Source: Candidatus Uhrbacteria bacterium (lineage in GTDB: Bacteria; Patescibacteriota; Patescibacteriia; UBA9934). Taken from it: a DNA stretch of 36,087 bases. The translations under genes were made by a program, and so were the position numbers. The notes beneath the pieces are model-generated. The model was not told the DNA's origin. It was given only the letters and a program-made list of their open reading frames with translations, and made no database searches. Position 1 is the first letter of the stretch. Each line of letters starts with the position of its first letter. Where the stretch lies: contig JAHFIZ010000002.1 in assembly GCA_023246145.1 (NCBI GenBank), positions 1 through 36,087 of the forward strand. Direction: 5' to 3'. Positions 40 to 13,686 of this stretch are shown piece by piece.

Positions 40-549
40 ATGTGGTACGGATTCGTACAGTTCTTCGTGGGCCTCATGCCCACCTATCTCAAGAACCGCT
101 ACGTCATTCGGCTCCCCGCTCCGATTGCCCTCACTATGGCAATTGTAACCGGAGTGGTGAAAATGGGATTCGGCCTGTACGAGATCCGCGGAAAGGAGTT
201 CGTGGAAGCGCGCCTTCTACGATTCGAGCAACGCTACATCGCGGTAGGTTTTGCCTACGGCTGCCTACAAGGCACGATCTTCTTCACGTTCATGTCCATC
301 GCGGCGACGCTTATATGGCATGAAACCTGGGGCGAGATCGCAGTCCAAGCGGGACGGACGTATCTCGTGAACTTCCTCCTTGGCTACCCCATCCTCCTCC
401 TCACGGAATGGGCGGGCCGTCAGTTGAACTGGCTGATCGTATTCCTCAGGCCGTACGTGGAGCCGATCATCGCGCCTGTCGTGGCGCGCTTCAGCGCGCT
501 CTTCTCGCCTCTCATGGACTCCATGAAGGCGTTCGTGAAATGCAGCTAG
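40..549 (+). CDS. hypothetical multi-pass membrane protein; 5' end may lie outside the window
   Basis: 169-aa ORF with several hydrophobic helices (FVQFFVGLMP, IALTMAIVTGVV, TIFFTFMSIAATLIW, LVNFLLGYPILLL). The same frame has no stop between nt 1 and the ATG at 40. Confidence 0.5.
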   Translation: MWYGFVQFFVGLMPTYLKNRYVIRLPAPIALTMAIVTGVVKMGFGLYEIRGKEFVEARLLRFEQRYIAVGFAYGCLQGTIFFTFMSIAATLIWHETWGEIAVQAGRTYLVNFLLGYPILLLTEWAGRQLNWLIVFLRPYVEPIIAPVVARFSALFSPLMDSMKAFVKCS

Positions 550-580
550 CCGGCGGTCCTCTCATGGGCTGCCGGTTTTG
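550..580 (+). terminator. possible intrinsic terminator after the 40..549 ORF
   Basis: ccggcgg (550-556) pairs with ctgccgg (569-575), including one G-U pair, and is followed by tttt (576-579). Confidence 0.4.
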
Positions 581-594
581 CATTGCGCCGGATT

Positions 595-643
595 GTTAAG
601 CACCTTAACAGGTTTAGTAACTTAACTTGTTTAGCACCTTAAC
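595..643. repeat. three phased copies of a 15-bp palindromic motif GTTWAG-N3-CTTAAC, function unknown
   Basis: gttaagcaccttaac (595-609), gtttagtaacttaac (612-626), gtttagcaccttaac (629-643). Starts are exactly 17 nt apart. The array lies in the convergent spacer between the 40..549 ORF and the crtI-type gene. Confidence 0.6.
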
Positions 644-654
644 CACATAAGGTT

Positions 655-2169
655 CTAAAGTGACTTGAGTGGTCCATCAGACTTATCGCCAATCAAACGT
701 TTGTACACTAATTCGGCGCTGATCAAGCAAATCGGCATGCCGATTCCTGGATTAGTGTTCGCTCCCACGTAATACAAGTTCTTCACTTTTTTACTAATTG
801 TGTTCGGCCTAAAAATGGCCGTCTGCATGAGGGTATGAGCGAGTCCGAGAGCACTCCCCTTGTAGCTGTTATAGCGCTCTTTAAAATCTTTTCCGCAGAA
901 ATAGCGTTTGAACTCTATGCGCTCACGAATGTTTGGAATGGATAATTCTGTTTGCATGAGATCCAGTATCTTCTCGCCGTACGCATTCATCTCATCTTCC
1001 GTATACTCGATTCCTGGCGCCATCGGCACAAGAACGAAGAGGTTCTCTTTTCCCTCTGGCGCGACTGAAGGGTCAGTCACGCTCGGCGCGCAAACGTAAA
1101 GCGAAGGGTCAGTAGGCCACTGTGGGTGATCAAAAATCTCCCCAAAGTTTTTGTGCCAATCGCGGGAGAACAAAAGATTGTGATGCGTGAGGGATGGAAC
1201 ACGATCTTTAAAACCTAAATACATGATGAACGCAGAAGGCGAGAGCGTTTTCTTTTCCCAGACACTTTCCGGATGCTCTCTATCTTCCTCTTTTTTGAGT
1301 AACTTCGTTTCCGTATGATGGATGTCTGCGTTAGAGACGATGATATCGGCAGATAAAATCTCGCCTGATTCGAGCCGGACGCCTATTGCTTTGCCATTTT
1401 CAGTGAGGATCTCGGCGACCGGACTCGACGTTCGGTAATGCACGCCATTCTTCTCACCAATTTTCACGAGCGACTCAATAATCTTATAGATCCCACCCGT
1501 GGGATAAAACACACCCATGCCGAAATCAATGTACGTCATGATGCTGTAAAGCGCCGGCGTGTTGTAGGGAGAACTACCGAGGAATACGAGCGTGTACTGC
1601 ATGATCTTCTGCATGGTTTCCGTTTTGAAGAAGCGACGTACAAACCTATCCATTGTAGAAAATACCGATAGCTTCGTTCCCTGGATTGCAACCCGCAGTG
1701 TCAGGAAATCAAAAATGCTGTCGTAATTCTTATACATGAAACTCTCCTTGGAGATTTCATAGTTCAGCTTCGCCCTTCTCAAATATTCGTCGAACTTCAC
1801 TGACGACCCGGGTTCCAGTTTTTCAAACGTCTCACCGTCTTTCTCGCGGTCAGCGTACATGTTAATCATGCCCGCAGGTGAGTCCTTAAAAAAGATTCGG
1901 TATGACGGCGTGAGGCGTTTAAGCGCTAGGTGGTCCTCGATCTTTTCACCCATCAGATCGAAATAATGCTCAAACACATCCGGCATGAGGTACCAAGATG
2001 GTCCCATGTCAAAGGTAAAACCGTTCGCCTTAAAAAGACCGGCCCGTCCGCCAAGCATTTCATTCTTCTCAAGTAATGTTACGTGGAATCCTTTCTTCCC
2101 GAGCATGGCTGCAAGGGATAATCCCCCTATACCGCCGCCGATGACGATGACCGTTTTTCCGCTTTCCAT
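655..2169 (-). CDS. crtI: phytoene desaturase family FAD oxidoreductase (CrtI/CrtN type)
   Basis: 504-aa ORF. N-terminal dinucleotide-binding motif VIVIGGGIGGLSLAAMLGKKGFHVTLLEKNEMLGGRAG, and length and overall look typical of CrtI-family desaturases. Last gene of an operon after a phytoene/squalene synthase. TAG stop. Confidence 0.85.
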   Translation of the reverse strand: MESGKTVIVIGGGIGGLSLAAMLGKKGFHVTLLEKNEMLGGRAGLFKANGFTFDMGPSWYLMPDVFEHYFDLMGEKIEDHLALKRLTPSYRIFFKDSPAGMINMYADREKDGETFEKLEPGSSVKFDEYLRRAKLNYEISKESFMYKNYDSIFDFLTLRVAIQGTKLSVFSTMDRFVRRFFKTETMQKIMQYTLVFLGSSPYNTPALYSIMTYIDFGMGVFYPTGGIYKIIESLVKIGEKNGVHYRTSSPVAEILTENGKAIGVRLESGEILSADIIVSNADIHHTETKLLKKEEDREHPESVWEKKTLSPSAFIMYLGFKDRVPSLTHHNLLFSRDWHKNFGEIFDHPQWPTDPSLYVCAPSVTDPSVAPEGKENLFVLVPMAPGIEYTEDEMNAYGEKILDLMQTELSIPNIRERIEFKRYFCGKDFKERYNSYKGSALGLAHTLMQTAIFRPNTISKKVKNLYYVGANTNPGIGMPICLISAELVYKRLIGDKSDGPLKSL

Positions 2170-3041
2170 ACGCCGTACGCTAAAACCAGCTTTTCTATAA
2201 AATTTGTCCTCACTCTGCCCTCAAAGATGTCATAGTCTGCTTCCTCTATTTTGTCGAGTATGGCTTCATAGAGCGTACTTGCTACTCTGACTGCCAACTG
2301 GCCGTCTTTATTAAGGAGCGGCACGCCTTCATCCGCCGAAACGTACAACGCTCTTGCTCTACTCATCTGGAAGCCCATGAAACGTTTAAACATTTCATTG
2401 CAAACGCCATTCTTAATATCCTCCTTTGTGATACCGAAAGAAGATAATTCTTCTGCCGGCAAATAGATTCTCCCGCGCTCTTCAAAGTCTTCCTGAATAT
2501 CACGTAAAAAGTTTGTGAGCTGCATGGCGTAACCCAATTCCTCGGCATACAGCAGCGCTCGTTTATCCGTAAATCCTATGACATACGTCATCATAAGCCC
2601 TACCACCGCCGCAGAGCCGTACATGTAACGCTCTAGTTCCGCGTAACTCTTGTAGGAAGACTTTGTGACATCTTGAAGCATTGCCTTGATAAAGTCCTCG
2701 CTGTACTCAAGGGGGATAGCAAATGCATGGAACACCTCGGACGTTGCTCTGAGTACAGGAACCCACAAAGGATCACTTGTCTTTTCCCATCCCAATTCAC
2801 GAGCGTACGCCCTCCCCCACGCCTCTTTCCAGTGCACGAGTTCATCATGAATCGCCTCAGCTGAATCGAGTCTTGGGTTATCTACAATCTCATCCGGCAA
2901 ACGGAAAAAGGCATACAGGACGTTTGTGGCGTCACGCTTCTCTTTAGGAAAAAGCTTAGTGGCGAAGTAGTAACTTTTGCCGTATTTCTTCTGTAAGGCG
3001 CGGCAGTAACGGACGTCAGCGGGCAACAGATGGAGCGTCAT
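2127..3041 (-). CDS. crtB: phytoene/squalene synthase family protein (CrtB/CrtM type)
   Basis: 304-aa ORF. YYFATKLFP, the first Asp-rich motif YAFFRLPDEIVD and the second RDIQEDFE are typical of the trans-isoprenyl diphosphate synthase head-to-head family. Its ATG overlaps the upstream gene stop (ATGA), and it overlaps the crtI start by 43 nt. Confidence 0.85.
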   Translation of the reverse strand: MTLHLLPADVRYCRALQKKYGKSYYFATKLFPKEKRDATNVLYAFFRLPDEIVDNPRLDSAEAIHDELVHWKEAWGRAYARELGWEKTSDPLWVPVLRATSEVFHAFAIPLEYSEDFIKAMLQDVTKSSYKSYAELERYMYGSAAVVGLMMTYVIGFTDKRALLYAEELGYAMQLTNFLRDIQEDFEERGRIYLPAEELSSFGITKEDIKNGVCNEMFKRFMGFQMSRARALYVSADEGVPLLNKDGQLAVRVASTLYEAILDKIEEADYDIFEGRVRTNFIEKLVLAYGVWKAEKRSSSSAAV

Positions 3042-4099
3042 GTGGTTCTTTCCTTGATAGTAGACACGAGGCCCAAAAGCACTTGCTTAGCGCTCTCCGG
3101 AAGTTTGGAGAGAGATGCCAGTTCTTCTGCCTCCGTGAAGGCTCGAGCGAGCTCATTTTGCGCATAGGATACCACTCCCGTTTTTTCCATCATAGAAAGA
3201 ATGCTCGCGCAGTCTTCCGGTGATAGATCTCTTTTCCCAAACAGCGCACCGAAAATTTTCTTTTCTTCTTCAGCTGCATTCGTCACGAAGTAGTGCGTGA
3301 GAAGCGTGTGCTGACCTTCCCTAATGTCATTCATGCACGGTTTGCCGATTTTTTCTTCTGTCGAAAGAAGATCCAGGAGGTCATCTTGCAACTGAAAAGC
3401 GAGACCTATCTTTAGACCAAATGCTTCCAGTGTCTTTTCAAACTGTTCATCTCCGGCTGCAAGCGCTAAACCTATCTGAAGCGGGCGAACAAAGCTGTAG
3501 GTAGCGGTTTTCAATTCCATCTTTCTTCTAATCAGTTCTTCACTGGCCTCTCTCTTTCCCATGAGGCTCACATCAATCATCTGTCCGGCCACTACGTCAT
3601 CAATCATCTGGAAAAATAACCTGAGCACTCGGTCCCGATTCATGAGATCCCCCACACCATCTTGAAAAGATTCTGAGGCCCAAGCAAACAAAAGATCTCC
3701 TACTAAAATTGCCTGACCGTTTGCCAAATGAGAAAGATCACCTCTTGCATTCTCCTGTGTTAAATACTCAAGCGTAACTTTATGAACAGTAGAAACACCG
3801 TGGCGCTTATCAGCTTTATCTATCACGTCATCATGCACTAAACAAAACAAATGAAAGAGCTCGAGCCCGAGACCCACCTTCCCAATTGCTGTCTCATCCA
3901 CTCCCCCGAAAGCTTTATACATCCCACTCGCCATAAACGGTCGAGCGCGTTTCCCGCCAGAGAGCGCAATAGTCTTTACCGCATCGAGATACGAAATTAA
4001 TCCGGCATCGCCGAGCAATCCGCGAAGGTGTTCGACTCTCCCGTCAAAATACCGCTCAAGCAACTGATCAAACATTTTCTTGAACTCGCCAATCAACAT
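3038..4099 (-). CDS. polyprenyl diphosphate synthase (GGPP/FPP synthase type)
   Basis: 353-aa ORF with the first Asp-rich motif LVHDDVIDKAD and the second FQLQDDLLD, as in polyprenyl synthetases. First gene of the three-gene operon. It ends in TGA, showing that TGA is a stop codon here. Confidence 0.85.
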   Translation of the reverse strand: MLIGEFKKMFDQLLERYFDGRVEHLRGLLGDAGLISYLDAVKTIALSGGKRARPFMASGMYKAFGGVDETAIGKVGLGLELFHLFCLVHDDVIDKADKRHGVSTVHKVTLEYLTQENARGDLSHLANGQAILVGDLLFAWASESFQDGVGDLMNRDRVLRLFFQMIDDVVAGQMIDVSLMGKREASEELIRRKMELKTATYSFVRPLQIGLALAAGDEQFEKTLEAFGLKIGLAFQLQDDLLDLLSTEEKIGKPCMNDIREGQHTLLTHYFVTNAAEEEKKIFGALFGKRDLSPEDCASILSMMEKTGVVSYAQNELARAFTEAEELASLSKLPESAKQVLLGLVSTIKERTT

Positions 4100-4199
4100 A
4101 TGGCGCTACAGTACCGATTTCAGGGCGAGAAGAAAAGTGCGGGTTGTTAGAGGTCAATAAGAAGCGTAGGCTGAAAATGTTAGTCGTAACCCCACCTCT

Positions 4200-4916
4200 A
4201 TGAATAATCGCTCATACGCCATTGGCGTGGCAGTCATTGTGCTTGCCATCCTCATTGGCGCTTTCATCATCTATAAATCTCCAAGCGGGACAACTACACC
4301 CATAGTTGAAAATCCACCGGTAAATAATGGCACTACTACGCCTCCTGTTGTCACTCCACCGGCCCCTACGGAAACCACATACGAAAATACCAGTCTCAAG
4401 CTCAGCGTTCCCGCTGGTTGGACGGCTACTGCTGCCACCTCTGCTACAAGCAAGGATGCGGTAAACATCGCTAAAGGAAACTGGATCCTCTACGTCAGCC
4501 CGCACGCTTCCCAGGCAAGCGGCACAGAAGGCGGACGGTTTGCAGAAATTGGCATGGGCGCCCCAAGTGTGGATGCCGTAGTCACTACAGAGCCGAGCGA
4601 ATGTGGCACCACAGAAAAAACTGCCGCCTATGGAATCTATACACGTGTAGATTACTTCATGAGCGCAGCTGAAAAGAAGGATTGGTGTGCCGCACCAACC
4701 AACGGCAAAACGGTCTGGTTCTTCTCGTACCTCACCAGTCCCGGCAATGGCTTCTTCAACTACTACAAAAAAGATGTGAATGACGGCCTGGTAGTCACCA
4801 TGGCGTATAACTCCAAAGTGGTGAACAGCTTCCCCGTCAAAGGTAGTGCGGAACTTACCGCCGCTCTGAAAGAGATGACGGACATCGCGAAGACCCTCGT
4901 CATCAAAACAAAATAG
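4200..4916 (+). CDS. hypothetical membrane-anchored or secreted protein with a Thr/Pro-rich linker
   Basis: 238-aa ORF. N-terminal TM helix YAIGVAVIVLAILIGAFIIY, then TTTPIVENPPVNNGTTTPPVVTPPAPTETT. Followed by a strong terminator. The antisense ORF 4212..4937 is Cys/Arg-rich and looks spurious. Confidence 0.6.
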   Translation: MNNRSYAIGVAVIVLAILIGAFIIYKSPSGTTTPIVENPPVNNGTTTPPVVTPPAPTETTYENTSLKLSVPAGWTATAATSATSKDAVNIAKGNWILYVSPHASQASGTEGGRFAEIGMGAPSVDAVVTTEPSECGTTEKTAAYGIYTRVDYFMSAAEKKDWCAAPTNGKTVWFFSYLTSPGNGFFNYYKKDVNDGLVVTMAYNSKVVNSFPVKGSAELTAALKEMTDIAKTLVIKTK

Positions 4917-4961: not shown

Positions 4962-5178
4962 TTGAACCGAAAGTCCTCCTACTTCTTCTTGTCCTTCTTT
5001 GGCTTCTTAACATTTTTCCGAGCGTTTTGTCCTTTGGCCATAAAAATATGTTTAGACCAAAGTATACATTAAAACAGGAGATAGTCTGCCAGAATATCCT
5101 CAAATAAAAAGAGCTGGTGCTGATGCGGCTTATTTTGACGATACTCCCCTTATCTGCTATTCTTTTCGCGCATTTCAT

Positions 5179-5253
5179 GGCCCTATCGTCTAACGGTTAG
5201 GACAGAGGCTTCTCAAGCCTTAAATCCGGGTTCGATTCCCGGTAGGGTCACCA
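5179..5253 (+). tRNA. tRNA-Glu (anticodon CTC) with encoded CCA
   Basis: Hand-folded cloverleaf. Acceptor GGCCCTA/TAGGGTC; D arm GTCT-AACGGTTA-GGAC; anticodon arm GAGGC-TTCTCAA-GCCTT (CTC at 34-36); variable AAAT; T arm CCGGG-TTCGATT-CCCGG; discriminator A; CCA at 5251-5253. Confidence 0.93.
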
Positions 5254-6691
5254 AAGAAGACCTTCCTTCATGGAAGGCCTTTTTTGTTTCTAAGATTGGC
5301 GACAATACAGGTGTTTCAAACTTTGGATAGGTATAAAGCGGCTTTTCGGCAAAAATCAAACTCAGCAAGTTCTTCCGTTGGTCGTACGTCGCACCTTCCC
5401 AACATTTTGCAAGATCCTCTAACGTCGTGAAGACAAACAATACCGCCTCGTCAACAGCGAATGTCTCAAGCTTCATGTCTGCAAGCGCGGCATGCGTGTC
5501 GAGAATCTTATCCTTAACCGCCTTGAACTCTTCCTTGAAATCGTCTTCTCCGAGTAAATCCTTTTTCGCCATGTCGATAAGTTTCCTCTTCTCACCTTCC
5601 ATGCGCTCAAGTTCGCCTGAGATTTTTGTACGGTTCTGATTGATCGTTTTGTACTGTTCCTGCCAAACATCGGCAATAACCTCTTTTAATGCCTCAGAGA
5701 AGTCTTTTTTGAAGGTAATCTGCTCCAAAAGTTCAGCAAACTCTCCCTCCAGTTTTTTCTTTGACAGAGATTTGATGGCGGTTTCACACTCTTTGAAATA
5801 ACAACGATAGTATGGGTAATGGTTGCCCGCCTTGTTTCTGGAGTAGGATGCCGTGAGCGGACGGGCGCAATAACCACATCTTACGAAATGTCGGAGCGGA
5901 AAGTCTTCATCTCTACGCGCATAAGAGATCGCGTCTTCACGCGTTACACCGCGAAGAATGCTCTGACACAAAGCAAATGTGTCATCATCGACAATCGGTT
6001 CGTGTACCCCTCTTATTTCTTGATCAAATGCCTCCATCCAGCCTGCATAAAATCGATTGCGGATGATTTTTGAGATGAGTTGTGCAGACATCTTATTGCC
6101 CTCGCGCGTGCGGAAACCCCTCTTATTTACTTCATTACAAAGCTCGGTGAGCTGCGAAGCACCTTTTGCAAACTCCTCAAAAATCCATGCGATGTGTTTG
6201 GAGCGCTCACCGTCTGGAACGATAATCTTCTCCCCCGAATCGTTCTTTATGTTCTTGTAGCCAACAGGTGATCTCCATTGCCAGTAGCCCTTGGCAAACT
6301 TCGTCTGCATGCAGTCGGTAGTGCGTTGACCCTTCATCTGGTTGTCGAACTGGGCACTCGCCGCCATGAGGTTGCCGATATATTGACCAACTGGACTTTC
6401 ATCCACGGCTTCTGTCACGGAGACCAGCTTTATTTTCAACTTCGCAAGAAGAACAAGAATGTTCGTGTAGTCGTTCATGTTGCGGGATAGTCGATCGATT
6501 CGATAAACGATCACCGATCCAATCCTTGCAGCATTTTTCATGCAGTATGCCAGCATGTCTTGGAGACCGTCGCGATTCGTTGTCTTCGCGGAAACACCAT
6601 CGTCGTGAAAAATGCGATCAATGGTAATCCCAAGTTTCTCGGCGTGCTTTTTACACGCTCCCTCTTGTTGCTCAAGGCTAATACCATGCAC
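5213..6691 (-). CDS. large serine recombinase (integrase/resolvase family); a full-length reading would be 5213..6757 but is broken by an in-frame TGA at 6728..6730
   Basis: The 492-aa ORF starts at a GTG. It has resolvase-domain motifs (VIVYRIDRLSRN), a recombinase domain, a Cys-rich zinc-ribbon-like segment (CGYCARPL...YYRCYFKEC) and a C-terminal coiled coil. The catalytic-Ser motif LIYYRVSTEEQ is encoded in the same frame upstream (6692..6727), between the TGA and the GTG. The 3' end overlaps tRNA-Glu by 41 nt. Confidence 0.85.
   Translation of the reverse strand: MHGISLEQQEGACKKHAEKLGITIDRIFHDDGVSAKTTNRDGLQDMLAYCMKNAARIGSVIVYRIDRLSRNMNDYTNILVLLAKLKIKLVSVTEAVDESPVGQYIGNLMAASAQFDNQMKGQRTTDCMQTKFAKGYWQWRSPVGYKNIKNDSGEKIIVPDGERSKHIAWIFEEFAKGASQLTELCNEVNKRGFRTREGNKMSAQLISKIIRNRFYAGWMEAFDQEIRGVHEPIVDDDTFALCQSILRGVTREDAISYARRDEDFPLRHFVRCGYCARPLTASYSRNKAGNHYPYYRCYFKECETAIKSLSKKKLEGEFAELLEQITFKKDFSEALKEVIADVWQEQYKTINQNRTKISGELERMEGEKRKLIDMAKKDLLGEDDFKEEFKAVKDKILDTHAALADMKLETFAVDEAVLFVFTTLEDLAKCWEGATYDQRKNLLSLIFAEKPLYTYPKFETPVLSPILETKKAFHEGRSSLVTLPGIEPGFKA
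5259..5286 (+). terminator. intrinsic terminator after tRNA-Glu
   Basis: ccttcc (5261-5266), loop ttcat, ggaagg (5272-5277), then a T-run at 5280-5285. Confidence 0.6.
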
Positions 6692-6782
6692 CGCTTGTTC
6701 TTCGGTGGAAACACGGTAGTAGATGAGTCATTCGTTTTTTCCGTTCTCGCTAACCATAGGTTGTGTAGTCATAATGCGACGT

Positions 6783-6941
6783 TTAAGATTTTTTATCTAG
6801 GTCTATGATTTTTCGCTTCCATTTCTCCCAGCAAAGCCGAACCCACAAGTAGTGGGCATCCCGAAGTAAGCGAAGTTCGTCTTCGCTCAGACCATCGGCA
6901 CGTCTGCCGAGAATCCGTTTGTACTGCGAGATAGAGATCAC
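6783..6941 (-). CDS. possible 52-aa small protein upstream of the recombinase (below the ORF-track size cut-off)
   Basis: GTG-initiated frame VISISQYKRILGRRADGLSEDELRLLRDAHYLWVRLCWEKWKRKIIDLDKKS. It lies between a minus-strand terminator (6957..6982) and the recombinase ATG at 6757. No family recognised. Confidence 0.25.
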   Translation of the reverse strand: MISISQYKRILGRRADGLSEDELRLLRDAHYLWVRLCWEKWKRKIIDLDKKS

Positions 6942-6956
6942 ATGGCGCGGTTAAAT

Positions 6957-6982
6957 CAAAAACCGCTCCTATCGTAGAGCGG
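6957..6982 (-). terminator. intrinsic terminator after the 7007..7822 gene
   Basis: Minus strand reads ccgctc-tacgatag-gagcgg followed by ttttt (plus-strand stems at 6963-6968 and 6977-6982, A-run at 6958-6962). Confidence 0.6.
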
Positions 6983-7006
6983 CTCGTGATTCCCGTCTTC
7001 GGACAT

Positions 7007-7822
7007 TTACTCCCCCTTGCTTTTCTTCTTCTTTGCTAATCGTCTCTTTCGCTCTCTACCCAGAATCTTTTTGATGTTTTCGGTGTTGAGAAATGCAAGA
7101 TCAAAATATGGAGGAGGCCACGCGCCTTTATAGGCCTCTGTTCTGTATCCGTCAGATTTGATCACGCCATCACGGTAGGCCTCATGGACAAGTTTGTGCA
7201 GGTTCGCTTTTGAACGTTGACGCACTCGGGTTCCAAAAATATTCTGATCCTTTTTATCTCGAATCTCTAATATTTTTTGCCAAGCCGTGAAGTGCTTATG
7301 GATATTCTGGAGATCCTGAAGGGAGGCATGCGGCTTTATGATAAGCACGGCAGACTTTTCTAAGGAATGGATTATCGCACGTTTCTTGATATCAAAATGA
7401 GCATCTATTCCGAGCTTTCCTGGATAAAAACATTCCTGCTCATACTGACGCAACTCATCTATAGCTTGAATAATCTCTGCGCCATCCGCAACGGTGATAC
7501 CGAACGATTCTGTGAGGTGAGGAAAGTTTGTGAAGTGCTCCACTTCATTTAATGCGACATACAGCGTCATCGGTGGCTCCAGCTCTTCGAGATAGTCACC
7601 AAATCCATACTCAGATATCACTTCATGATTGAAGGCCTGAAGAGCCATGAGAACTGAAGTTCCATCAGAGTTTCTTGCATTATAAACATCCATCACTGAC
7701 GCAAAGCCCTTGGCGGGAATGCCATTGCGTTCTCTAAAATCGGCCATCCTTTTTGGAAAGTCGTAGTCTTCGGTGATACGCCGCCAAAGTTCCTCCACTG
7801 GATTTTTTCTTTTCTTTGCCAT
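7007..7822 (-). CDS. hypothetical protein with Lys/Arg-rich termini
   Basis: 271-aa ORF beginning MAKKRKNP and ending RERKRRLAKKKKSKGE. No motif recognised. Followed by a terminator. Confidence 0.6.
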   Translation of the reverse strand: MAKKRKNPVEELWRRITEDYDFPKRMADFRERNGIPAKGFASVMDVYNARNSDGTSVLMALQAFNHEVISEYGFGDYLEELEPPMTLYVALNEVEHFTNFPHLTESFGITVADGAEIIQAIDELRQYEQECFYPGKLGIDAHFDIKKRAIIHSLEKSAVLIIKPHASLQDLQNIHKHFTAWQKILEIRDKKDQNIFGTRVRQRSKANLHKLVHEAYRDGVIKSDGYRTEAYKGAWPPPYFDLAFLNTENIKKILGRERKRRLAKKKKSKGE

Positions 7823-7931
7823 AGTAAAACCACGGATTTGATTCCCATTTTGTCATATTCTACACGATTATGCTATTCTTTTAGCTACAATCTGCCTAAA
7901 CTCTGTTCTTCGAACAGGGCATGGCGAAAAT

Positions 7932-8074
7932 ACCCACGCTAATAAAGACGGTCTCGTGACCGACTCCATTAGCGTGGGTCTGTATTCGAAAGGATACAGG
8001 GCGATTCCGAAAGGTTTCGTCGTCGGTTCGCGGGACCTTTTGTGTTCCGCAAAAATCAAATCCCACGCTAATAA
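7932..8074 (+). promoter_or_regulatory. structured 5' leader with three copies of an 11-13 nt element able to form mutually exclusive helices
   Basis: acccacgctaat (7932-7943) and its exact reverse complement attagcgtgggt (7968-7979). A third direct copy cccacgctaataa (8062-8074) ends 1 nt before the ATG at 8076. Further small hairpins lie at 7980-8001. Confidence 0.4.
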
Positions 8075-8075
8075 T

Positions 8076-9140
8076 ATGAAAAGATGCCCATTCTGCGCCG
8101 AAGAGGTGCAAGATCAGGCGGTGAAGTGTAAGCACTGCCAAAGTCAGTTAACGAGTTCGTCAGGTTCTGAGAAAAAGGGGGAGGAAAAAGTGACAGGTTC
8201 GTCAAAGCCAAGTGGCGGAGTCCTTGATCCGCTTCTTTCCGTTTTCAGCATGCCCGTGCTACGCGTCATGCTGTGGGGTATGTACTTCATGGTCTTTGTC
8301 AGTCTGCTCGCTTCAGCGCCATTTTTAGCCCTGCTATTCCTCTTGCCGCCTGTTTGGACTATTCGCACCACAAAGGATCGCGACAAGCCCGTACAACGCC
8401 TCAAGGCGTGGAAGAACCACAAGGTTCGTATCGCTTTCAGCGTGGTTTTTGTTTTATTTGCACTTATTGCATCTTCCGCCAATGCTGACAAGGAGAAGAA
8501 AGATCGCATGATTGCCGAGTATCCCGTACCCGTCATCGCGGTCATGAGTGCTACGGGCGATCAGGGAGACGCGACGACATATCTTCTTCAGCTCACTGTA
8601 ACGGACGCGGATGCCGTGACGGTCAACAGTGCCTCCGTTGAATCAAATGGATCGGGAGTCTACGAGAAAGAGATTCTTCTTGCAGAACCTTCGACAACGC
8701 TTAATATCAAAGCATCCAACGAATACAAGAATGCTGCCACGAGCGTCGTGGTTACTCGCAACATGACCGAGGAGGAAGTTGCAGAGGAAGCCCGTAAAGA
8801 AGCTGAAGCAAAGGCAGAAGCCGCACGGAAGGAAGCCGAAGCTGCCGCGAAACGTGCACAGGAAGAGGCAGAGCAACGCGCATGGGAACAATCCAAAGCT
8901 GGCAAGATTTGCTCCCGTCATCCTGAATGGACGGAGGAAACCTGCAAGGATGTTGCTGACAACAAAATCTGGATCGGCATGGAATACGACATGCTTATAG
9001 AGCAACGTGGCAAACCAAGCTCGGCTAATCCGTCGAACTACGGTTATGGCACGCAATGGCAGTGGTGCTGGTCCTGGGACTACGATGTGAGCTGCTTCTA
9101 CGACAACAACGATGACGGCATTATCGATTCCTATAACTAA
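8076..9140 (+). CDS. zinc-ribbon membrane protein with a coiled-coil and a C-terminal globular domain
   Basis: The ORF track gives 7956..9140. I prefer the ATG at 8076 (MKRCPFCAEEVQDQAVKCKHCQ, a CxxC-N10-CxxC zinc ribbon). TM helices MLWGMYFMVFVSLLASAPFLALLFLLPPVW and IAFSVVFVLFALIASS. Ala/Glu/Lys coiled-coil EEARKEAEAKAEAARKEAEAAAKRAQEEAEQ. Confidence 0.7.
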   Translation: MKRCPFCAEEVQDQAVKCKHCQSQLTSSSGSEKKGEEKVTGSSKPSGGVLDPLLSVFSMPVLRVMLWGMYFMVFVSLLASAPFLALLFLLPPVWTIRTTKDRDKPVQRLKAWKNHKVRIAFSVVFVLFALIASSANADKEKKDRMIAEYPVPVIAVMSATGDQGDATTYLLQLTVTDADAVTVNSASVESNGSGVYEKEILLAEPSTTLNIKASNEYKNAATSVVVTRNMTEEEVAEEARKEAEAKAEAARKEAEAAAKRAQEEAEQRAWEQSKAGKICSRHPEWTEETCKDVADNKIWIGMEYDMLIEQRGKPSSANPSNYGYGTQWQWCWSWDYDVSCFYDNNDDGIIDSYN

Positions 9141-9144
9141 AGCT

Positions 9145-9573
9145 ATGGGTATCAAAGCATGTCCGTATTGTGCGGAAGAGATTCAGGAAGAGGCTGTCAT
9201 CTGCAAGCACTGCAAATCAAGCCTCAAGGAGACCGATGCTCCCAAGGAAGCAGGGGTGACTACCGCCAAGAGCGACAAAGCCTTCGGTGCGGCAACGGGT
9301 TTCTTTGGAGGTTTGGGATGCGGCATTTGGCTCATCATCTTCGGGCTACTCATCAGCCTCACGGGCATTGGGGCGATCATTGGCATCCCGCTCGCTCTCG
9401 CGGGGCTGCTCATGCCCTTTATCGCTCCTGTGATGGGTTTGGCGCAGGTTTCGGGGCAATGCCCGCACTGCACCAAACATCTCGTCGCCTCGTCGATTAA
9501 AGGGGCTGTGACCTGCAAGTATTGCAAAAAGCGGGTTGTTATCGACAAGGGCAAGTTCGTACGGGTCGATTAG
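9145..9573 (+). CDS. double zinc-ribbon membrane protein
   Basis: The ORF track gives 9112..9573. I prefer the ATG at 9145 (MGIKACPYCAEEIQEEAVICKHCK), whose N-terminus is paralogous to the preceding gene. Gly-rich TM segments follow, and a second ribbon CPHC...CKYC lies at the C-terminus. Confidence 0.7.
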   Translation: MGIKACPYCAEEIQEEAVICKHCKSSLKETDAPKEAGVTTAKSDKAFGAATGFFGGLGCGIWLIIFGLLISLTGIGAIIGIPLALAGLLMPFIAPVMGLAQVSGQCPHCTKHLVASSIKGAVTCKYCKKRVVIDKGKFVRVD

Positions 9574-9581
9574 AGCAACAG

Positions 9582-9610
9582 CGCCTTCCATTCGCGTGGG
9601 AGGCGTTTTC
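9582..9610 (+). terminator. intrinsic terminator after the zinc-ribbon gene pair
   Basis: cgccttcc (9582-9589) pairs with gggaggcg (9598-9605), with one G-U pair, followed by tttt (9606-9609). Confidence 0.65.
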
Positions 9611-9648
9611 GGTAAAACGACCGTTCAGAAACCTAATAACCTAATCGT

Positions 9649-10185
9649 GTGTCTGATTTTCCTGTACTTTGTATGGTGGTAAGCTATCCTCAACACGCTT
9701 GTTCAGTCATAAAAATCACGAATATGCAGGTCTTATTAAACGGTCGGTTCACCGATGAGGAACGGTCAGAGCTGGGAACGGTAATGCGGAAGATTGATTC
9801 GAATATTGATGTTCATGAAAGCATTACAAAGTCACAGGATTTGGTAGAGATCGTACGTGCGTCTTTGCAGGTAGATTCGCTTCCGCAGCTATTGGTCGAC
9901 GGTGTTATTTTCGAAGCGATCAAAGAGTCTACCCTCGCACTATACCGATGGATCAAATCTAAAAAGCCAGATGCAGAACTCCATCTCAACATTCGCTGCA
10001 CTATCGAGTCTAAGACGACCATTCTCGCTATTCCTGAAAAAGAGGAAGATATCTCTAAGTTTTTTGAAGGCGTTGACGATGAACTGAAAGAGTCTGGTGC
10101 GTCTCTTTTCACGTCAGAGAAATATCGAGTTATAAAAATGACAAGTGAAAAAATCACCATTGAGGATTTCAAACCTAACTCCTAA
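9649..10185 (+). CDS. hypothetical protein, gene A of the four-gene cassette (alternative start ATG 9724)
   Basis: 178-aa ORF from a GTG. An ATG at 9724 (MQVLLNGRF...) would give 153 aa. No motif recognised. The stop is 2 nt before the next start. Confidence 0.6.
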   Translation: MSDFPVLCMVVSYPQHACSVIKITNMQVLLNGRFTDEERSELGTVMRKIDSNIDVHESITKSQDLVEIVRASLQVDSLPQLLVDGVIFEAIKESTLALYRWIKSKKPDAELHLNIRCTIESKTTILAIPEKEEDISKFFEGVDDELKESGASLFTSEKYRVIKMTSEKITIEDFKPNS

Positions 10186-10187
10186 CT

Positions 10188-11759
10188 ATGGACGCTGAAA
10201 AGAACAATCAAAAGCGCCAGCTTTGCCTTGACCACACTGAGGAGCTGCTGAAGGGTGCTTTGATTTTGTTGGATGGTAAGCTCGACCATCTCTCTTTTCA
10301 TCTCTCAACCCTCGCTCTTGAGGAGATCGGAAAGATCTCGCTCATCGCAACGCAGGCCATCGCTTCGGATGCTGGAAAATATCCAAACATAAACTTGGAC
10401 ACCGATGATCATGAAAAGAAGTTATTTTGGGCGATTTGGGGGCCATCATTCGGACGACAAAAGGTCACTCAAAAGCAGTTGGAGGAGCAGCAAGGACTGG
10501 CTAAAAACATTCACAAAAGACGTAAGGATTATTTGTATACAGATCCAAGTAATCCCGTTACGTGGAGACAAAAAATGGAAGAGGGCGAGGCACAGTCGCT
10601 CTATGATTTCGCCAACACAAGATACCAGCTTGAGATCGCAAATGGAGGAATGCGTACAGACATGACCGACAAAGAGTCCCAAACTCTCAAATGGTTTTTG
10701 GATGCGTGCGACGATCCAGAAAAGCGTAATCAAATCTTTGGGAATAAGTCTCAAGAAAAGCTCATAGAACTCGGAAGTGTTCACGATTGGATCGAGTGGC
10801 TTAAGGGCGTATACGACAAAAACGAAGAAGAAATGCTAGAGTTGGTAAAAGCCGAACTTGCAAGAAAGAAGCCTGCAACAAAAGAAGAGGCCGAAAAACA
10901 GAAATGGAGGGTTAAGATGAAGATCGTAACCCCATCGCATTCGATTCGAAATAGCAAGTGTTTTTTGGCTTTCAACGAGCATTCGGATTACATCAAACTA
11001 TTCGCGGTCGACAAAAATACTCTGACGCTTCAGTTGTTCCTTTCAAAAAATGTTCCAGTGCACGCCGTATGGGATCAGGGGTGGATGATCTCAAGGATGT
11101 TTGTCACCGCCCTCAACATCGCGACACGTGGCTTATTTTGGTGGAACGTTCCCGTCGATACAGCAAGATACTATGAGGAAATCTGGGATATAGAAAATAA
11201 TCACGGAGTGGCGGTTGAAATGAACCCGAAGCTTGAACTGAACTGGAAGGAAATGCGGTGGGTACTCCGTCCCGTTGACCTAACGGTTACTTCAGTCGTT
11301 TTTGCGTACCTCTCTCATCTGAAAACGCAAGATAACATGGAGGCGTTGAATCTATATGCCAGCGGGCTTAGCCTTTTGGCAAAGAATGATGTTCATCTTC
11401 GTCTTGAGATGAACTCCTTTGAGCAGTTCTATCTGTCACTGAAAACAGCTTTGGCCAAAAACGCACATTGGGATGGAAAGACGGATTTAGTAGCTGCAGT
11501 GTTTGCCCAGATCAAATGGCTTTATAAGGGCGATATGGAGAGTCTAAAAGAAGTCTTTGGATTGGCTGCTGAGATCGAATCAGCGCATCAATCGAGCAAG
11601 CCCATAACTCTCAGTGAGGTCATGATCATGAAGTCTTTTTGCGACATCTATTTCTTAAAACTTGCAAAGGCTTATATTGAGATACGTGAAGGAAAAGAGT
11701 TTCGATTCGTCGCTGGAGAAGAAGACGATCAGACAGAGGATACCCCTTCCTCTACATAG
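10188..11759 (+). CDS. AbiV-like HEPN-domain protein with a ~400-aa uncharacterised C-terminal extension, gene B
   Basis: 523 aa. The N-terminal ~120 aa carry LKGALILLDG...LSTLALEEIGK (res 43-49), DDHEKKL (73-79) and RRKDYLYTD (111-119). These match my recollection of the AbiV/HEPN_AbiV signature (EE.GK helix, H..K, R...LYvD). The remainder has no motif I recognise. Confidence 0.65.
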   Translation: MDAEKNNQKRQLCLDHTEELLKGALILLDGKLDHLSFHLSTLALEEIGKISLIATQAIASDAGKYPNINLDTDDHEKKLFWAIWGPSFGRQKVTQKQLEEQQGLAKNIHKRRKDYLYTDPSNPVTWRQKMEEGEAQSLYDFANTRYQLEIANGGMRTDMTDKESQTLKWFLDACDDPEKRNQIFGNKSQEKLIELGSVHDWIEWLKGVYDKNEEEMLELVKAELARKKPATKEEAEKQKWRVKMKIVTPSHSIRNSKCFLAFNEHSDYIKLFAVDKNTLTLQLFLSKNVPVHAVWDQGWMISRMFVTALNIATRGLFWWNVPVDTARYYEEIWDIENNHGVAVEMNPKLELNWKEMRWVLRPVDLTVTSVVFAYLSHLKTQDNMEALNLYASGLSLLAKNDVHLRLEMNSFEQFYLSLKTALAKNAHWDGKTDLVAAVFAQIKWLYKGDMESLKEVFGLAAEIESAHQSSKPITLSEVMIMKSFCDIYFLKLAKAYIEIREGKEFRFVAGEEDDQTEDTPSST

Positions 11760-11767
11760 AGTTTTTT

Positions 11768-12268
11768 ATGATAGCAATCGGCTCCAAACTCATTCCACAG
11801 CGTGATCTGCTTTTTCGGGCGTGGTCTGGAAATCCTCTTGCGCACACCTTTGGTGGCAAAGCTGTTATCGACTTCGAAGTTCGTCCAATGTTCGCGGAAC
11901 TTGCCATAGCCGAAACATTGAAAAAAGAAGGCTACTCGACGCGCTGGGCGGAAACGTATGGGCGTGGCAATAAGCTCCCCCTATTCCTCACTGAATGGCT
12001 GGATCGACCGTACGGGGAACAGAAGGACGTACCAATCACCGAACAATGGATTCTGGACATCCTTGCGGGCATCGCAAGCCTCAACAACGGCTCGTACGCG
12101 GGCTGCTGGGACGTTTTGGCATGGAAGGGCGACAAACTCCTGTTCGTGGAGTCAAAACGCAACAAGCGCGATTCAGTGCGAGATTCGCAGGTCGCGTGGC
12201 TGGATGCTGGATTGAAATACGGGCTTACTCCCGAGAACTTTCTTGTAGTGCAGTGGGATTTTGAATAA
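11768..12268 (+). CDS. VRR-NUC / PD-(D/E)xK family nuclease, gene C
   Basis: 166 aa. GCWDVLAWKGDKLLFVESKRNKRDSVRDSQVAWLDAGLKYG gives D115, E128-x-K130 and the downstream Q141 that is typical of VRR-NUC domains. Confidence 0.75.
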   Translation: MIAIGSKLIPQRDLLFRAWSGNPLAHTFGGKAVIDFEVRPMFAELAIAETLKKEGYSTRWAETYGRGNKLPLFLTEWLDRPYGEQKDVPITEQWILDILAGIASLNNGSYAGCWDVLAWKGDKLLFVESKRNKRDSVRDSQVAWLDAGLKYGLTPENFLVVQWDFE

Positions 12269-12929
12269 TGGATTTTCTATGAACAGCTTAAAAATCGTGA
12301 AAGGAGCAGTGAGTGGTGCCATAGACGCAGCGCTCTCAACCAATCCCGTTATCGCCATTGCATGGGGAGCGATTAAAGGTGGCGTGAGCGAGATGCGCGA
12401 AAAACGTGGCATCGAACTCGTTGCTTTTATTGAGCAGCATTGCACAATACAGCAGTTTGCTGATCCTAACTTTGTGGATGGCATTGGGCTTACTTTTGAG
12501 GCGTTCATCCGCGAACGGAACGAGAAAAAACGAGAGATAATCAAACAGGTTTTTCTTGGATTTTCGTCTGCAGAAGACAGGGAATCCTTTGAGCTGGAAC
12601 GTTTCTACGAAACATCGAAACTCATCTCTGTCGATCAGCTTAAGGCGTTTTCTTTGTTCAAGGAACAGAAAAGTATTGAACTGGTGAGTGAAGGGCGTGG
12701 AAAACCAGTGTCACACGAACTCGTTGAAGATTTACGATCTCTTGCGTCCTTGGGATTGGTGACAATCGACTTGCAAATAGAGGTGGAGTCAGAAGAGGAG
12801 GTGGAAGGTGATAGAGACGGCGGGTATGGTTCAACAGGCAGGTTAGTTCCCAAGATGTGGAAAGGAGAATATGCTGACATTACTGCCTTCGGCACTTCAT
12901 TTTTGAGCTACTTAAGGAAAACCGTATAA
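12261..12929 (+). CDS. hypothetical protein, gene D (more likely start ATG 12279)
   Basis: The ORF track starts at a TTG that overlaps the gene C stop. The ATG at 12279 gives MNSLKIVKG.... Gly/Ala-rich hydrophobic N-terminal segment GAVSGAIDAALSTNPVIAIAWGAIKGGV and an acidic C-terminal stretch ESEEEVEGDRDGG. No family recognised. Confidence 0.6.
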   Translation: MNNGFSMNSLKIVKGAVSGAIDAALSTNPVIAIAWGAIKGGVSEMREKRGIELVAFIEQHCTIQQFADPNFVDGIGLTFEAFIRERNEKKREIIKQVFLGFSSAEDRESFELERFYETSKLISVDQLKAFSLFKEQKSIELVSEGRGKPVSHELVEDLRSLASLGLVTIDLQIEVESEEEVEGDRDGGYGSTGRLVPKMWKGEYADITAFGTSFLSYLRKTV

Positions 12930-12939
12930 TGCCAACATT

Positions 12940-13428
12940 ATGAAATCTCACTATTTTGCCGTGATTGTTGTCGTAACCTTCTTATTGACTGGAGCAGGAT
13001 GTATGAAGAATACGCCGTCTCTAGAGGATCGATTGACTACTTATGAGGCGGAACGAAAAGTTTGCGTACAAGAAAGACGAGACTCGTTTGATCTTTCCTA
13101 TAAGGGTCAGTCCGCAGAATGGGACGAGTATGAGCAGCAAAAAGCGGAATATGCCTGTTCTACGGTTGATCTGGCTAAAAAATACTACGCGGAAGACCCA
13201 GAAGGGATCGTCGAGCTTTGCGTCCGCACAGAACAGATCGGAAACTATACATATGAAAAGGGATTGGGAGGAGCATTCACAAAGAGTGAACTGGATCAAC
13301 TCCATCAGGCAGGTACGTTCGCTGATGTAACTATGGATGAACGTGGCATGGTAACCATTGGAGATGATACGTTGGAAAACTGGCGAGGACTGTGCCGAGA
13401 TGTGATTGAAAATGTTGTTAGCCCCTAA
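12940..13428 (+). CDS. small secreted protein or putative lipoprotein
   Basis: 162 aa. Signal-like N-terminus MKSHYFAVIVVVTFLLTGAGC with Cys at position 21. Hydrophilic, Cys-containing mature part. Confidence 0.6.
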   Translation: MKSHYFAVIVVVTFLLTGAGCMKNTPSLEDRLTTYEAERKVCVQERRDSFDLSYKGQSAEWDEYEQQKAEYACSTVDLAKKYYAEDPEGIVELCVRTEQIGNYTYEKGLGGAFTKSELDQLHQAGTFADVTMDERGMVTIGDDTLENWRGLCRDVIENVVSP

Positions 13429-13686
13429 AATCCGTAATCCACTCATTTTGCCCGATTTTGTCTGGTTCCTTGATGCTGTATCTCTCTATACTACGTCATG
13501 TGTTCCACTCCATGATGGGGAGAAGGATAAACGCGCTCTTTAGCCTGAAAAAGCCTCGTTTTTCGCAATCCCGCTTGCACTAAGCACTGTCGACCACCGT
13601 TTCAGGTCTGAAATGATAGTGTTCCAATGCTCAGTGCAGTAGCTCACCAGGCCGTCGAACAGCCTTTAAAGCCGTTCAACAGAACC

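Follow-up and report, generated by a model that had tools for sequence, protein, structure and literature searches.

A tight row of open reading frames beside an integrase raises the question of whether the genes form one system or have merely been collected together. Such a row lies in a contig of Candidatus Uhrbacteria bacterium (JAHFIZ010000002.1, assembly GCA_023246145.1), of which we analysed the whole stretch of 36,087 nt on the forward strand (the window). The first-pass annotation proposed that four genes at 9649-12929, here called A to D, are an undescribed anti-phage system pairing an AbiV-like HEPN protein (B) with a VRR-NUC nuclease (C). The best explanation, which we consider likely as a whole, is instead that the region is island cargo of four independent modules joined by gene-sized cassette exchange and not an obligate four-component system, with B as the defence-relevant element of the cargo, a stand-alone long AbiV, and C as a separate, predicted PD-(D/E)xK (VRR-NUC-type) DNA nuclease. 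A, C and D most likely each act alone or with partners other than B.

The four same-strand reading frames (9649-10185, 10188-11759, 11768-12268 and 12261/12279-12929) are present as had been described, with changes at two starts. Gene A most likely starts not at 9649 but at ATG 9724 (9724-10185, plus strand, 153 aa), because in the sister islands introduced below the 25 upstream codons are out of frame and the called genes begin at the equivalent ATG. Of the two starts offered for gene D, ATG 12279 stands and TTG 12261 falls, since every D homolog begins at the ATG (12279-12929, plus strand, 216 aa). Between them, also on the plus strand, lie gene B (10188-11759, 523 aa) and gene C (11768-12268, 166 aa), and the intergenic gaps A/B, B/C and C/D are 2, 8 and 10 nt when D is counted from its ATG. 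A fifth frame, gene E (12940-13428, plus strand, 162 aa, signal-peptide or lipoprotein-like N-terminus), begins 10 nt past D. Because A, B, C and D are co-directional and tightly packed, their co-transcription is probable. The hairpin reported earlier downstream of the preceding gene was confirmed by its folding energy: a terminator-like element on the plus strand, it combines a 12-bp stem (9580-9607) with UUUU behind it (dG -22.2 kcal/mol, z = -3.2), and is absent from the list of a consensus terminator scan.

Judging from sequence comparison, 9649-12929 is part of the variable cargo of an integrative island of ~8.5 kb (about 5176-13649). Homology to three near-identical sister islands (L084-86) begins at 5176 and ends at 13649, and the segment is also homologous to L171, a contig from another sample; the flanking genes differ in both L084-86 and L171. 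Integrase domains sit at the edge of this segment conserved between genomes with different flanks. The left end is marked by a tRNA-Glu (anticodon CTC; 5179-5253, plus strand; ARAGORN, and Rfam tRNA with 64 bits), whose 3' half overlaps the end of the ORF of a large serine recombinase (5213-6691, minus strand; Pfam Resolvase, Recombinase and Zn_ribbon_recom). This recombinase, the island integrase, is 92% identical to that of L084-86. Both elements of the setting noted in the first pass, the tRNA and the serine recombinase, are thereby confirmed, and the island is a mobile one with defence-type neighbours elsewhere. Further inward lies a backbone ORF of 271 aa (7007-7822, minus strand; 63% identical in the sister islands), to which domain searches assigned no domain. 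The plus-strand cargo operon is headed by a LOOT RNA (Rfam RF03000; 7893-8018, plus strand; 77 bits, gathering score 46.4), found at the equivalent place in the sister islands. Next come two zinc-ribbon membrane proteins on the plus strand: Zn1 (7956-9140; Pfam zinc-ribbon, sub-threshold; 65% identical in the sister islands), whose true start probably lies past the LOOT RNA, near 8079, and Zn2 (9112-9573; Pfam DZR/Zn_ribbon; 94% identical), which the hairpin separates from A. A conserved block closes the island on the right (13443-13649, plus strand; 92% nucleotide identity to L084 9180-9386 and L171 5185-5390). No direct repeat of at least 14 nt joining the tRNA end to the right end (att) was found. 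The crossover cores of serine integrases are very short, so a missing repeat is uninformative here.

Between these ends we located three variable slots. Slot 1 opens directly after the hairpin, at 9613/9623, where the sister islands and L171 have an extra 98-aa ORF inserted. Slot 2 (10178-11760) holds the whole of gene B, with the cassette boundary about 10 nt before the B ATG; in L084-86, where B is exactly missing, 20 nt lie between A and C. Slot 3 (12269-13442) is filled by D plus E, and an unrelated gene of 204/213 aa stands in their place in the sister islands. E is specific to the window, being missing from L171 as well as from the sister islands. Of the cargo genes, A and C alone are common to both island versions, at 89% and 93% amino-acid identity, and the G+C content of B (0.43-0.45) is lower than that of the adjacent island genes (0.51-0.54). 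Since A and C are adjacent there without B, they do not need it, and such natural presence/absence variants indicate that the cargo genes are separable. L171, the sole other A-B-C-D locus found, has the four genes in unchanged order and is about 91% identical in nucleotide sequence; B and D are thus jointly present or jointly absent within the lineage (n = 2 island versions), a pattern that is compatible with a local functional link.

The N-terminus of B is an AbiV-type HEPN domain, as the first pass had recognised. It scores above the curated cut-offs of both Pfam HEPN_AbiV PF18728 (46.2 bits, cut-off 27.1, residues 10-127) and NCBIfam TIGR04498 (46.3 bits, cut-off 27), and in a Foldseek search with the AF2 model the AbiV crystal structures 9bj7/9bj6 came out on top (TM to target about 0.5). 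Behind them ranked the HEPN proteins 2hsb, 1wol and 2q00, with a TM to target of about 0.6; prob is 0.97-1.0 for 9bj7/9bj6, 2hsb and 1wol. The corresponding E-values are weak (0.08-1) because about one third of the query aligns. The short motifs on which the first reading relied correspond to invariant or near-invariant family residues (E45, E46, G48, K49, D74, H75, K78, R112 and Y117); E46, K49 and H75 do not vary at all, and conservation of R112 is 90% or more. The HEPN module spans residues 1 to about 224 and is followed by a conserved alpha/beta plus helical module (residues about 225 to about 505), with a pLDDT of 92.3 for the latter and 89.8 for the full length. This long C-terminal extension had been described as lacking a recognisable motif, and indeed Pfam gave no domain for its ~300 residues and Foldseek no relative in PDB and BFVD. 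For this family the protein search gave 106 clusters, and 107 places were confirmed among species-representative genomes; it is conserved over its full length of about 520 aa with PF18728 present in all 100+ members, and extends over many phyla, including Patescibacteria, Bacteroidota, Acidobacteriota, Poribacteria, Planctomycetota and one thaumarchaeon. Among 2.9 million viral contigs, B and C are nearly absent.

Moreover, databases already know B by name: NCBIfam TIGR04498 and the JGI/NCBI annotations call it AbiV family. The search against PADLOC-DB v2, which the first-pass annotation had called for, gave only a weak partial AbiV match for B (E = 6.5e-4, 52 residues) and no named multi-gene system, while A, C and D were without match at E <= 1. 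The AbiV label is thus known; what is new is the ~300-aa C-terminal module, confidently folded in the predicted model and without a structural relative.

Gene C had been read as a stand-alone VRR-NUC nuclease of the PD-(D/E)xK type. The protein by itself stays below the threshold of Pfam VRR_NUC PF08774 (13.7 bits against 23.8, E = 0.069), but the assignment holds at family level: 20 of the 29 members match the model at E <= 0.1 (best E = 1.2e-7), and E44, D115, E128, K130 and Q141 are invariant in all 29 sequences, down to 41% identity. The family profile found no solved structure in PDB. An N-terminal extension of about 100 aa (W19...FAE44) is particular to this family. Seven of 80 metagenome C loci, and one IMG/VR contig, have a LOOT RNA 50-190 nt ahead of the C homolog and in its orientation. 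LOOT is followed by unrelated genes in the window and in L078 and L014 as well. These positions, ahead of C-family nucleases and at the start of a cargo operon, give LOOT, an RNA of unknown function, a genomic context.

To A and D domain searches assign nothing, as had been stated of both, and the family search for E was without match. A has only 7 relatives among 1.8 billion representatives, and the only one of them whose context could be read (L180) lies between Fic and HsdS in a Type I restriction-modification (RM)-type operon with no C. The D family consists of 8 clusters, and the Gly/Ala-rich start noted in the first pass is conserved in their alignment. D homologs are embedded in Type I and Type III RM operons, and in 4 other contexts A, B and C are all missing beside them. 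Both are small orphans with relatives lodged in RM operons. Because the families of A, C and D, all small and orphan, recur in such operons or in mobile elements, the three genes are candidates for accessory roles in defence or counter-defence.

Whether the four genes belong together is decided by the neighbourhoods of their homologs. Relatives of A, C or D were found beside B in 0 of 80 genomes with a B homolog, where tblastn and phmmer may miss very divergent A or D analogues, and B and D in 0 of 85 C loci. No family exceeds 5 of the 148 immediate neighbours of B homologs. Around the three B homologs nearest in sequence (56-59% identity) the genes are unrelated ones, with a Type I RM system plus HNH, or a methyltransferase, alongside. 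Other B homologs, in L001, L078 and L031, share the layout of tRNA plus serine recombinase. The first-pass proposal of a four-gene system fails on this lack of co-occurrence, which it had itself named as refuting, together with the A-C pair without B in the sister islands; the four genes in their order were seen again only in the closely related L171. We therefore reject an obligate A-B-C-D system: co-occurrence is absent outside one island lineage among these loci and the genes are separable. A weaker version, in which A-B-C-D was recently assembled into an integrated system in this lineage, with B as RNase and C as DNase dual effectors and A and D as sensor, regulator or membrane parts, can draw on the common strand and short gaps (2-10 nt), on the order kept in L171, on the absence of both B and D from the alternative island, and on the HEPN-type gene that stands beside C in both island versions. 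In the window B takes this place; the sister islands have gene X instead, whose RNxxxH motif is accompanied by a HEPN_RiboL-PSP match below threshold (E = 0.0038). But no pair co-occurs outside the one lineage among the 80 B and 85 C loci, the neighbours differ already around the closest B homologs (56-59% identity), RM operons house D homologs of 42-67% identity without B or C, A-C adjacency exists without B, and no HEPN family recurs among the neighbours in the 85 C loci, all of which makes such integration very unlikely.

Two other groupings concern C. In one, A and C make up a two-gene module: A would regulate the nuclease or be its antitoxin, and B would have been inserted into this stable cargo core. 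Their being the only shared cargo genes, 20 nt apart in the sister islands, agrees with this, as does the variation around them (98-aa ORF, B, D/E, X). The handful of relatives of A, the A-family profile that matches no neighbour in the other 82 C loci, the gene immediately upstream of C that is not conserved across C loci, and the relative of A in L180 without C all argue the other way, and we hold this module to be quite unlikely. The other grouping makes C and the LOOT RNA a mobile-element backbone for DNA processing, resolution or maintenance, with B as the sole defence gene. VRR-NUC nucleases are frequent in mobile elements. In the same direction point the LOOT RNAs upstream of C homologs, serine recombinases near C homologs in L116, L163 and L175, and five C-family members that also match the Hjc resolvase model. 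Yet in most C loci the fetched flanks contain no recombinase, methyltransferases and subunits of Type I RM systems are among the neighbours in C loci, the viral contigs nearly lack C, and LOOT is not confined to C; a backbone role is thus unlikely, if somewhat easier to entertain than the A-C module. Independent modules brought together by cassette exchange remain the reading that we prefer.

For B as a stand-alone long AbiV, the HEPN domain would cut cellular RNA and so abort infection, by analogy with lactococcal AbiV, which cleaves rRNA. The attached C-terminal module may keep the HEPN domain inactive and sense a phage cue, and would replace the separate abiV2 antitoxin RNA, a replacement proposed because there is no room for such an RNA upstream of B. 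We put forward only tentatively, and as less likely than not, that long AbiV proteins are a distinct, self-contained, single-gene class of abortive infection, with the C-terminal fold as both phage sensor and HEPN inhibitor, and that whole genes are exchanged at precise intergenic slots behind a LOOT RNA leader, LOOT then marking or regulating a cassette-swapping defence operon. Tight same-strand packing beside an integrase does not make a system, and an attractive but wrong inference is here corrected. The long-AbiV family is widespread and labelled AbiV by pipelines, yet 60% of the protein is a structurally orphan module. A long AbiV that apparently does without the antitoxin RNA by which AbiV, as studied so far, is defined bears on how a HEPN toxin is controlled in cis.

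AbiV has been described as a HEPN RNase with an RNA antitoxin (bioRxiv 10.1101/2024.05.05.592566). The lactococcal system is a type III toxin-antitoxin in which the abiV1 toxin, a homodimer of ~200 aa, and the abiV2 antitoxin RNA are linked to rRNA cleavage and phage resistance. Like AbiV, B is chromosomal and a single protein-coding gene, and its E-x-x-K pair (E46/K49) is spaced like E67/K70 of the lactococcal protein. The R91-x5-H97 of the latter (canonical R-x4-6-H) has no conserved counterpart in B. The AbiV family has been reported to use a different conserved His together with the motif's basic residue (PMC3710099). In a comparison by description, the invariant H75, between helices 2 and 3, and the near-invariant R112 of B fit this account, and with E46 and K49 they also agree with that of bioRxiv 10.1101/2024.05.05.592566. 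B is much longer, with 523 aa against 201 aa and ~300 extra C-terminal residues. An abiV2-like antitoxin RNA was not found upstream of B, where only 2 nt separate it from the A stop, and Rfam gave no match near B; an RNA could still be encoded inside a coding sequence. Combinations of HEPN proteins with RM systems are known (Anantharaman et al. 2013, PMC3710099), and B homologs do occur between Mod and Res of Type III RM systems in Poribacteria (L012, L013, L032), after a Type I RM system plus HNH (L081) and beside a methyltransferase (L082). In the window, by contrast, B adjoins no RM system, and the link is occasional (about 3-5 of 80 loci) rather than defining. As for its carrier, the island resembles tRNA-targeting serine-recombinase islands with defence cargo in the tRNA that overlaps the 3' end of the integrase gene and in cargo that varies by whole genes, and differs from them in its very small size (~8.5 kb) and in the LOOT RNA that heads its cargo operon.

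The four plus-strand ORFs reported by the first-pass annotation were confirmed at 9649-10185 (A), 10188-11759 (B, a 523-aa protein that we call long AbiV), 11768-12268 (C, VRR-NUC-like) and 12261-12929 (D), and a fifth ORF, E (12940-13428, plus strand), begins 10 nt past D. In the sister islands L084, L085 and L086, drawn from two NCBI assemblies and an ENA contig, the 25 codons preceding ATG 9724 of A are out of frame and the called genes have the equivalent ATG as their start, and therefore A spans 9724-10185 and codes for 153 aa. All D homologs begin at the equivalent of ATG 12279, so that D is a 216-aa protein without overlap with C. The resulting A-B, B-C and C-D gaps are 2, 8 and 10 nt. 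The five cargo genes are probably co-transcribed, simply because the cargo slots of the island are packed head-to-tail. The hairpin suspected upstream of the cassette is real, with a 12-bp stem (9580-9607) followed by UUUU (dG -22.2 kcal/mol, z = -3.2). A good match to a sigma-70-like promoter (TTGAGC-16-TATAAT) lies at 12903-12930, inside the end of D and just 5' of E. The N-terminus of E is a signal-peptide or lipoprotein-like segment, and E is missing from every related island.

The setting beside a tRNA and a serine recombinase was also borne out. To the left of the region, tRNA-Glu (5179-5253) is overlapped by the 3' end of a large serine recombinase gene (5213-6691, minus strand; Resolvase, Recombinase and Zn_ribbon_recom domains). 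One ORF without assigned function and two zinc-ribbon membrane protein genes, Zn1 (7956-9140) and Zn2 (9112-9573), separate the recombinase from the cassette. The homology with the related islands stops at 5176 on one side and 13649 on the other, beyond which the chromosomal genes are not the same; in the window they are carotenoid genes left of the tRNA, and an acyltransferase, glmS, cell-wall genes and RNR genes on the right. B has a G+C content of 0.43-0.45, against 0.51-0.54 for the zinc-ribbon genes and 0.52-0.58 for the right-hand chromosomal flank. A repeat search for att repeats at the island ends gave nothing convincing. Despite homologous DNA around it, the island-edge tRNA-Glu has a CTC anticodon in the window, versus TTC in the sisters (L084 2448-2522, L086 1566-1640); this difference reflects either integration at distinct isoacceptor genes or a mutation of the anticodon. 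The mechanically called GTG start of Zn1 overlaps a LOOT RNA, so translation probably begins instead at the Met of 'MKRCPFCAEE', near 8079. The N-terminal zinc ribbons of Zn1 and Zn2 are paralogous (45% identity over 40 aa), and both proteins match several PHROGs without assigned function. Farther to the right, a 1592-aa ORF (25321-30099, minus strand) between the RNR genes and a sigma-70 gene shows a weak Ig-like (AIR9) Pfam match.

The AbiV-type HEPN N-terminus proposed for B is well supported. Residues 10-127 match Pfam HEPN_AbiV with 46.2 bits (cut-off 27.1), and the protein matches NCBIfam TIGR04498 with 46.3 bits (cut-off 27); the match to the PADLOC AbiV model is partial only (E = 6.5e-4). 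A full-length AF2 model (pLDDT 89.8, pTM 0.71) gave AbiV (9bj7/9bj6, prob 0.97-1.0) as the best credible Foldseek match, together with the archaeal HEPN proteins 2hsb, 1wol and 2q00, all confined to the N-terminal 150-200 residues. Within the B family E45, E46, G48, K49, H75, K78 and Y117 are invariant, and D74, H109 and R112 nearly so. In AbiV, E-x-x-K is the most conserved interface pair (10.1101/2024.05.05.592566), and members of the AbiV family typically retain the basic residue but not the His of Rx4-6H, with an alternative conserved His placed between helices 2 and 3 (PMC3710099). At the level of sequence, the conserved residues of the B family thus appear to agree with the published AbiV descriptions. 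Lactococcal AbiV was not found among PDB sequences with either the B family profile or the B N-terminal region; it is too divergent for sequence methods, so the residue mapping rests on the pattern and the literature.

The long C-terminal region of B was initially described as being without any recognised motif, and this holds: it has no Pfam domain and no credible fold match in PDB or BFVD. Modelled alone, residues 225-523 gave a confident structure (pLDDT 92.3, pTM 0.89), with a predicted alpha/beta part leading into a part of six helices, and with conserved residues K239, S250, H251, R254, N263, D324, D334, E336, K399, D401 and K482. Foldseek searches of the isolated module against PDB and BFVD returned noise (prob <= 0.2, TM < 0.3) except for one partial match of 130 columns; matches to Cys-loop receptors, kinases and RNase L/IRE1 were discarded as meaningless. 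A second HEPN domain in the helical part was rejected at the sequence level, as hhalign of the two halves of the family alignment gave less than 1% probability. Residues 147-220 (10626-10847) show sub-threshold similarity to the 'integron cassette protein' of PDB 3fy6 (E = 0.023), which is probably due to chance.

The assignment of C as a VRR-NUC PD-(D/E)xK nuclease stands for the family but not for C by itself, which matches VRR_NUC below threshold (E = 0.069). In an alignment of 29 members E44, D115, E128, K130 and Q141 are invariant, and when tested singly 20 of the 29 match VRR_NUC (best E = 1.2e-7) and 5 match Hjc. The family profile had no match among PDB sequences. The family comprises 52 clusters and 247 confirmed metagenomic places. 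A and D were likewise confirmed as lacking a recognisable domain, with nothing significant in Pfam, NCBIfam, PADLOC or PHROGs.

The central claim of the first-pass annotation, that the four genes constitute one anti-phage system, does not survive the comparison of genomes. The B family contains 106 homologous clusters, nearly all of 500-560 aa and aligned over their full length; all carry PF18728 and many already bear the JGI or NCBI annotation 'AbiV family abortive infection protein'. A survey with one genome per GTDB species gave 107 confirmed places, of which 80 loci were fetched from Patescibacteria, Saccharibacteria, Bacteroidota, Acidobacteriota, Poribacteria, Planctomycetota, Nitrospirae, Chloroflexi and others. 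By tblastn, A, C, D, E and the zinc-ribbon proteins were absent near B homologs (0/80). Clustering of all ORFs within 4 kb of B revealed no conserved neighbour, the largest family being serine recombinases (11 loci). Among 148 immediate neighbours scanned with Pfam and PADLOC the commonest were Resolvase (5), Type III restriction-modification (RM; 3), GmrSD (2), transposases and housekeeping genes, with no VRR_NUC. Even the three closest homologs (56-59% identity) are preceded by genes that do not resemble A, C or D, namely Type I RM, HNH and a 190-aa ORF (L081), a methyltransferase and a 246-aa ORF (L082), and a histidine phosphatase (L083). We considered the 190-aa and 246-aa ORFs, as well as a 163-aa ORF 5' of a C homolog (L087), as cryptic relatives of A, but BLAST, phmmer and profile searches were negative. 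B often resides in islands with a tRNA and a serine recombinase (the window, L001, L078 and L031) or inside RM operons. Three Poribacteria genomes (L012, L013 and L032; about 6150-12170 in each) have a long-AbiV homolog flanked by Mod and Res of a Type III RM system, with Mod ending ~176 nt upstream and Res starting ~8 nt downstream. Overall, B is a stand-alone AbiV-family protein, conserved over its full length, that moves as a single gene.

The same picture was obtained from the other genes. Neither B nor D occurs near C homologs (0/85 loci), A does so only in the three near-identical sister islands, and these 85 loci show no conserved neighbour and no recurrent HEPN neighbour. In 2.9 million viral contigs the B and C families are almost absent, with one locus each. 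We infer that C is an independent PD-(D/E)xK DNA nuclease. The A family has about 7 relatives among 1.84 billion representatives, and the one with readable context (L180) is flanked by Fic and HsdS and has no C in its vicinity. That locus (239-4650) is a Type I RM-type operon with Fic, the A-like gene (31% identity to A), HsdS, DUF4145, a 78-aa basic protein, a 168-aa P-loop protein and the start of HsdR; the 168-aa ORF was rejected as a C homolog because of its P-loop motif. D belongs to a family of 8 clusters. Its homologs in L089, L090 and L177 are part of a Type III RM operon, after which comes a Cas4/RNase_H-like protein, with GmrSD also present in L177; those in L172-L174 (L172 2845-5366) lie between hsdM and hsdS of a Type I RM operon, and that in L178 adjoins an FtsZ_C-like gene. 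The Type III loci show the order Mod-Res-D (L089 8001-10117; L090; L177 7270-8757) followed by a 488-aa Cas4/RNase_H_2/DUF2779 protein, which is 78% identical between two loci. This repeated occurrence within RM operons suggests that D is an RM-associated accessory gene. A and D are orphan proteins of RM-associated families.

Natural variants of the island bear on whether its cargo is linked within this lineage. Amino-acid identity between the window and L084-L086 is 92% for the recombinase, 89% for A and 93% for C, and the 271-aa ORF and the two zinc-ribbon genes are also shared. In the DNA alignment, 9623-10177 corresponds to L084 7417-7971 and 11761-12268 to L084 7992-8501; therefore C follows A after 20 nt in the sisters, which lack precisely the 1583-nt B segment (10178-11760), homology being lost at the last codons of A and regained a few bases before the ATG of C. 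In place of D and E (12269-13442) the sisters carry an unrelated gene X of 204/213 aa (L084 8537-9151, L086 7628-8269), and they also have a 98-aa ORF at the point matching 9613/9623. X contains an Rx4H motif (ELRNIVAHH) and matches HEPN_RiboL-PSP below threshold (E = 0.0038). With X in the sisters and B in the window, a HEPN-type gene therefore adjoins nuclease C in both versions. The close relative L171 (JGI; 90.7% nucleotide identity) carries the 98-aa ORF and all of A-D, with 95% identity for B and 93% for D, and an EamA gene where the window has E. The island thus has three gene-sized variable slots around constant A and C. The 213-aa gene of L171 is a D homolog, distinct from X, which weakens the case for independent variation of B and D. 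The two are jointly present in the window and L171 and jointly absent from L084-L086, and this is the sole observation that keeps a lineage-specific link alive.

The plus-strand cargo genes are headed by a LOOT RNA (RF03000; 7893-8018, plus strand), which scores 77 bits against a gathering score of 46.4 and lies ~60 nt before the likely true Zn1 start. At the Rfam threshold LOOT was also found in the sister islands (L084 5162-5287), L078 (6879-6993), L014, L030, L037, L116 (5747-5869), L163 (5741-5857), L170 (3722-3836), L103 (3646-3769), L107 (5759-5880), L113 (2462-2585) and L175 (4309-4436), with scores of 72-88 bits over the loci; a model built from 13 sequences added L020 and L134 (649-766). 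LOOT lies 50-190 nt upstream of a C homolog on the same strand in 7 of 80 metagenomic C-family loci and in one IMG/VR contig; four of them have 51-72 nt between the RNA and the ORF start. Elsewhere it is found 50-80 nt upstream of unrelated genes. The B-family loci with LOOT are all in Patescibacteria-type MAGs (5/5), where it precedes other genes. Such positions are those of a 5' leader of the cargo operons that these elements carry, with C-family nucleases as the most frequent downstream genes, and LOOT may be a regulator, an antitoxin-like RNA or a processing signal.

We propose that the HEPN domain of B would act as an RNase, like lactococcal AbiV, whose activation would arrest translation and abort infection, and that the C-terminal module may serve as a cis-acting inhibitor and phage sensor. 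Two observations prompt the latter proposal: the sequence preceding B leaves no space for an antitoxin RNA, and conservation of the extra module equals that of the HEPN domain. The long-AbiV family and the association of LOOT with nucleases are of somewhat more interest than the cassette as first described. No open paper linking VRR-NUC and HEPN in phage defence was found. The suggestion that the cassette is new relative to named systems stands insofar as PADLOC-DB v2 holds no counterpart, but not for B, which JGI and NCBI already label as AbiV family. What remains novel is long AbiV, as a variant of this known family. Both HMM and fold place B there, but the characterised AbiV system has an RNA antitoxin and a 200-aa dimer format, whereas B appears to be without both, and it carries an added orphan module.
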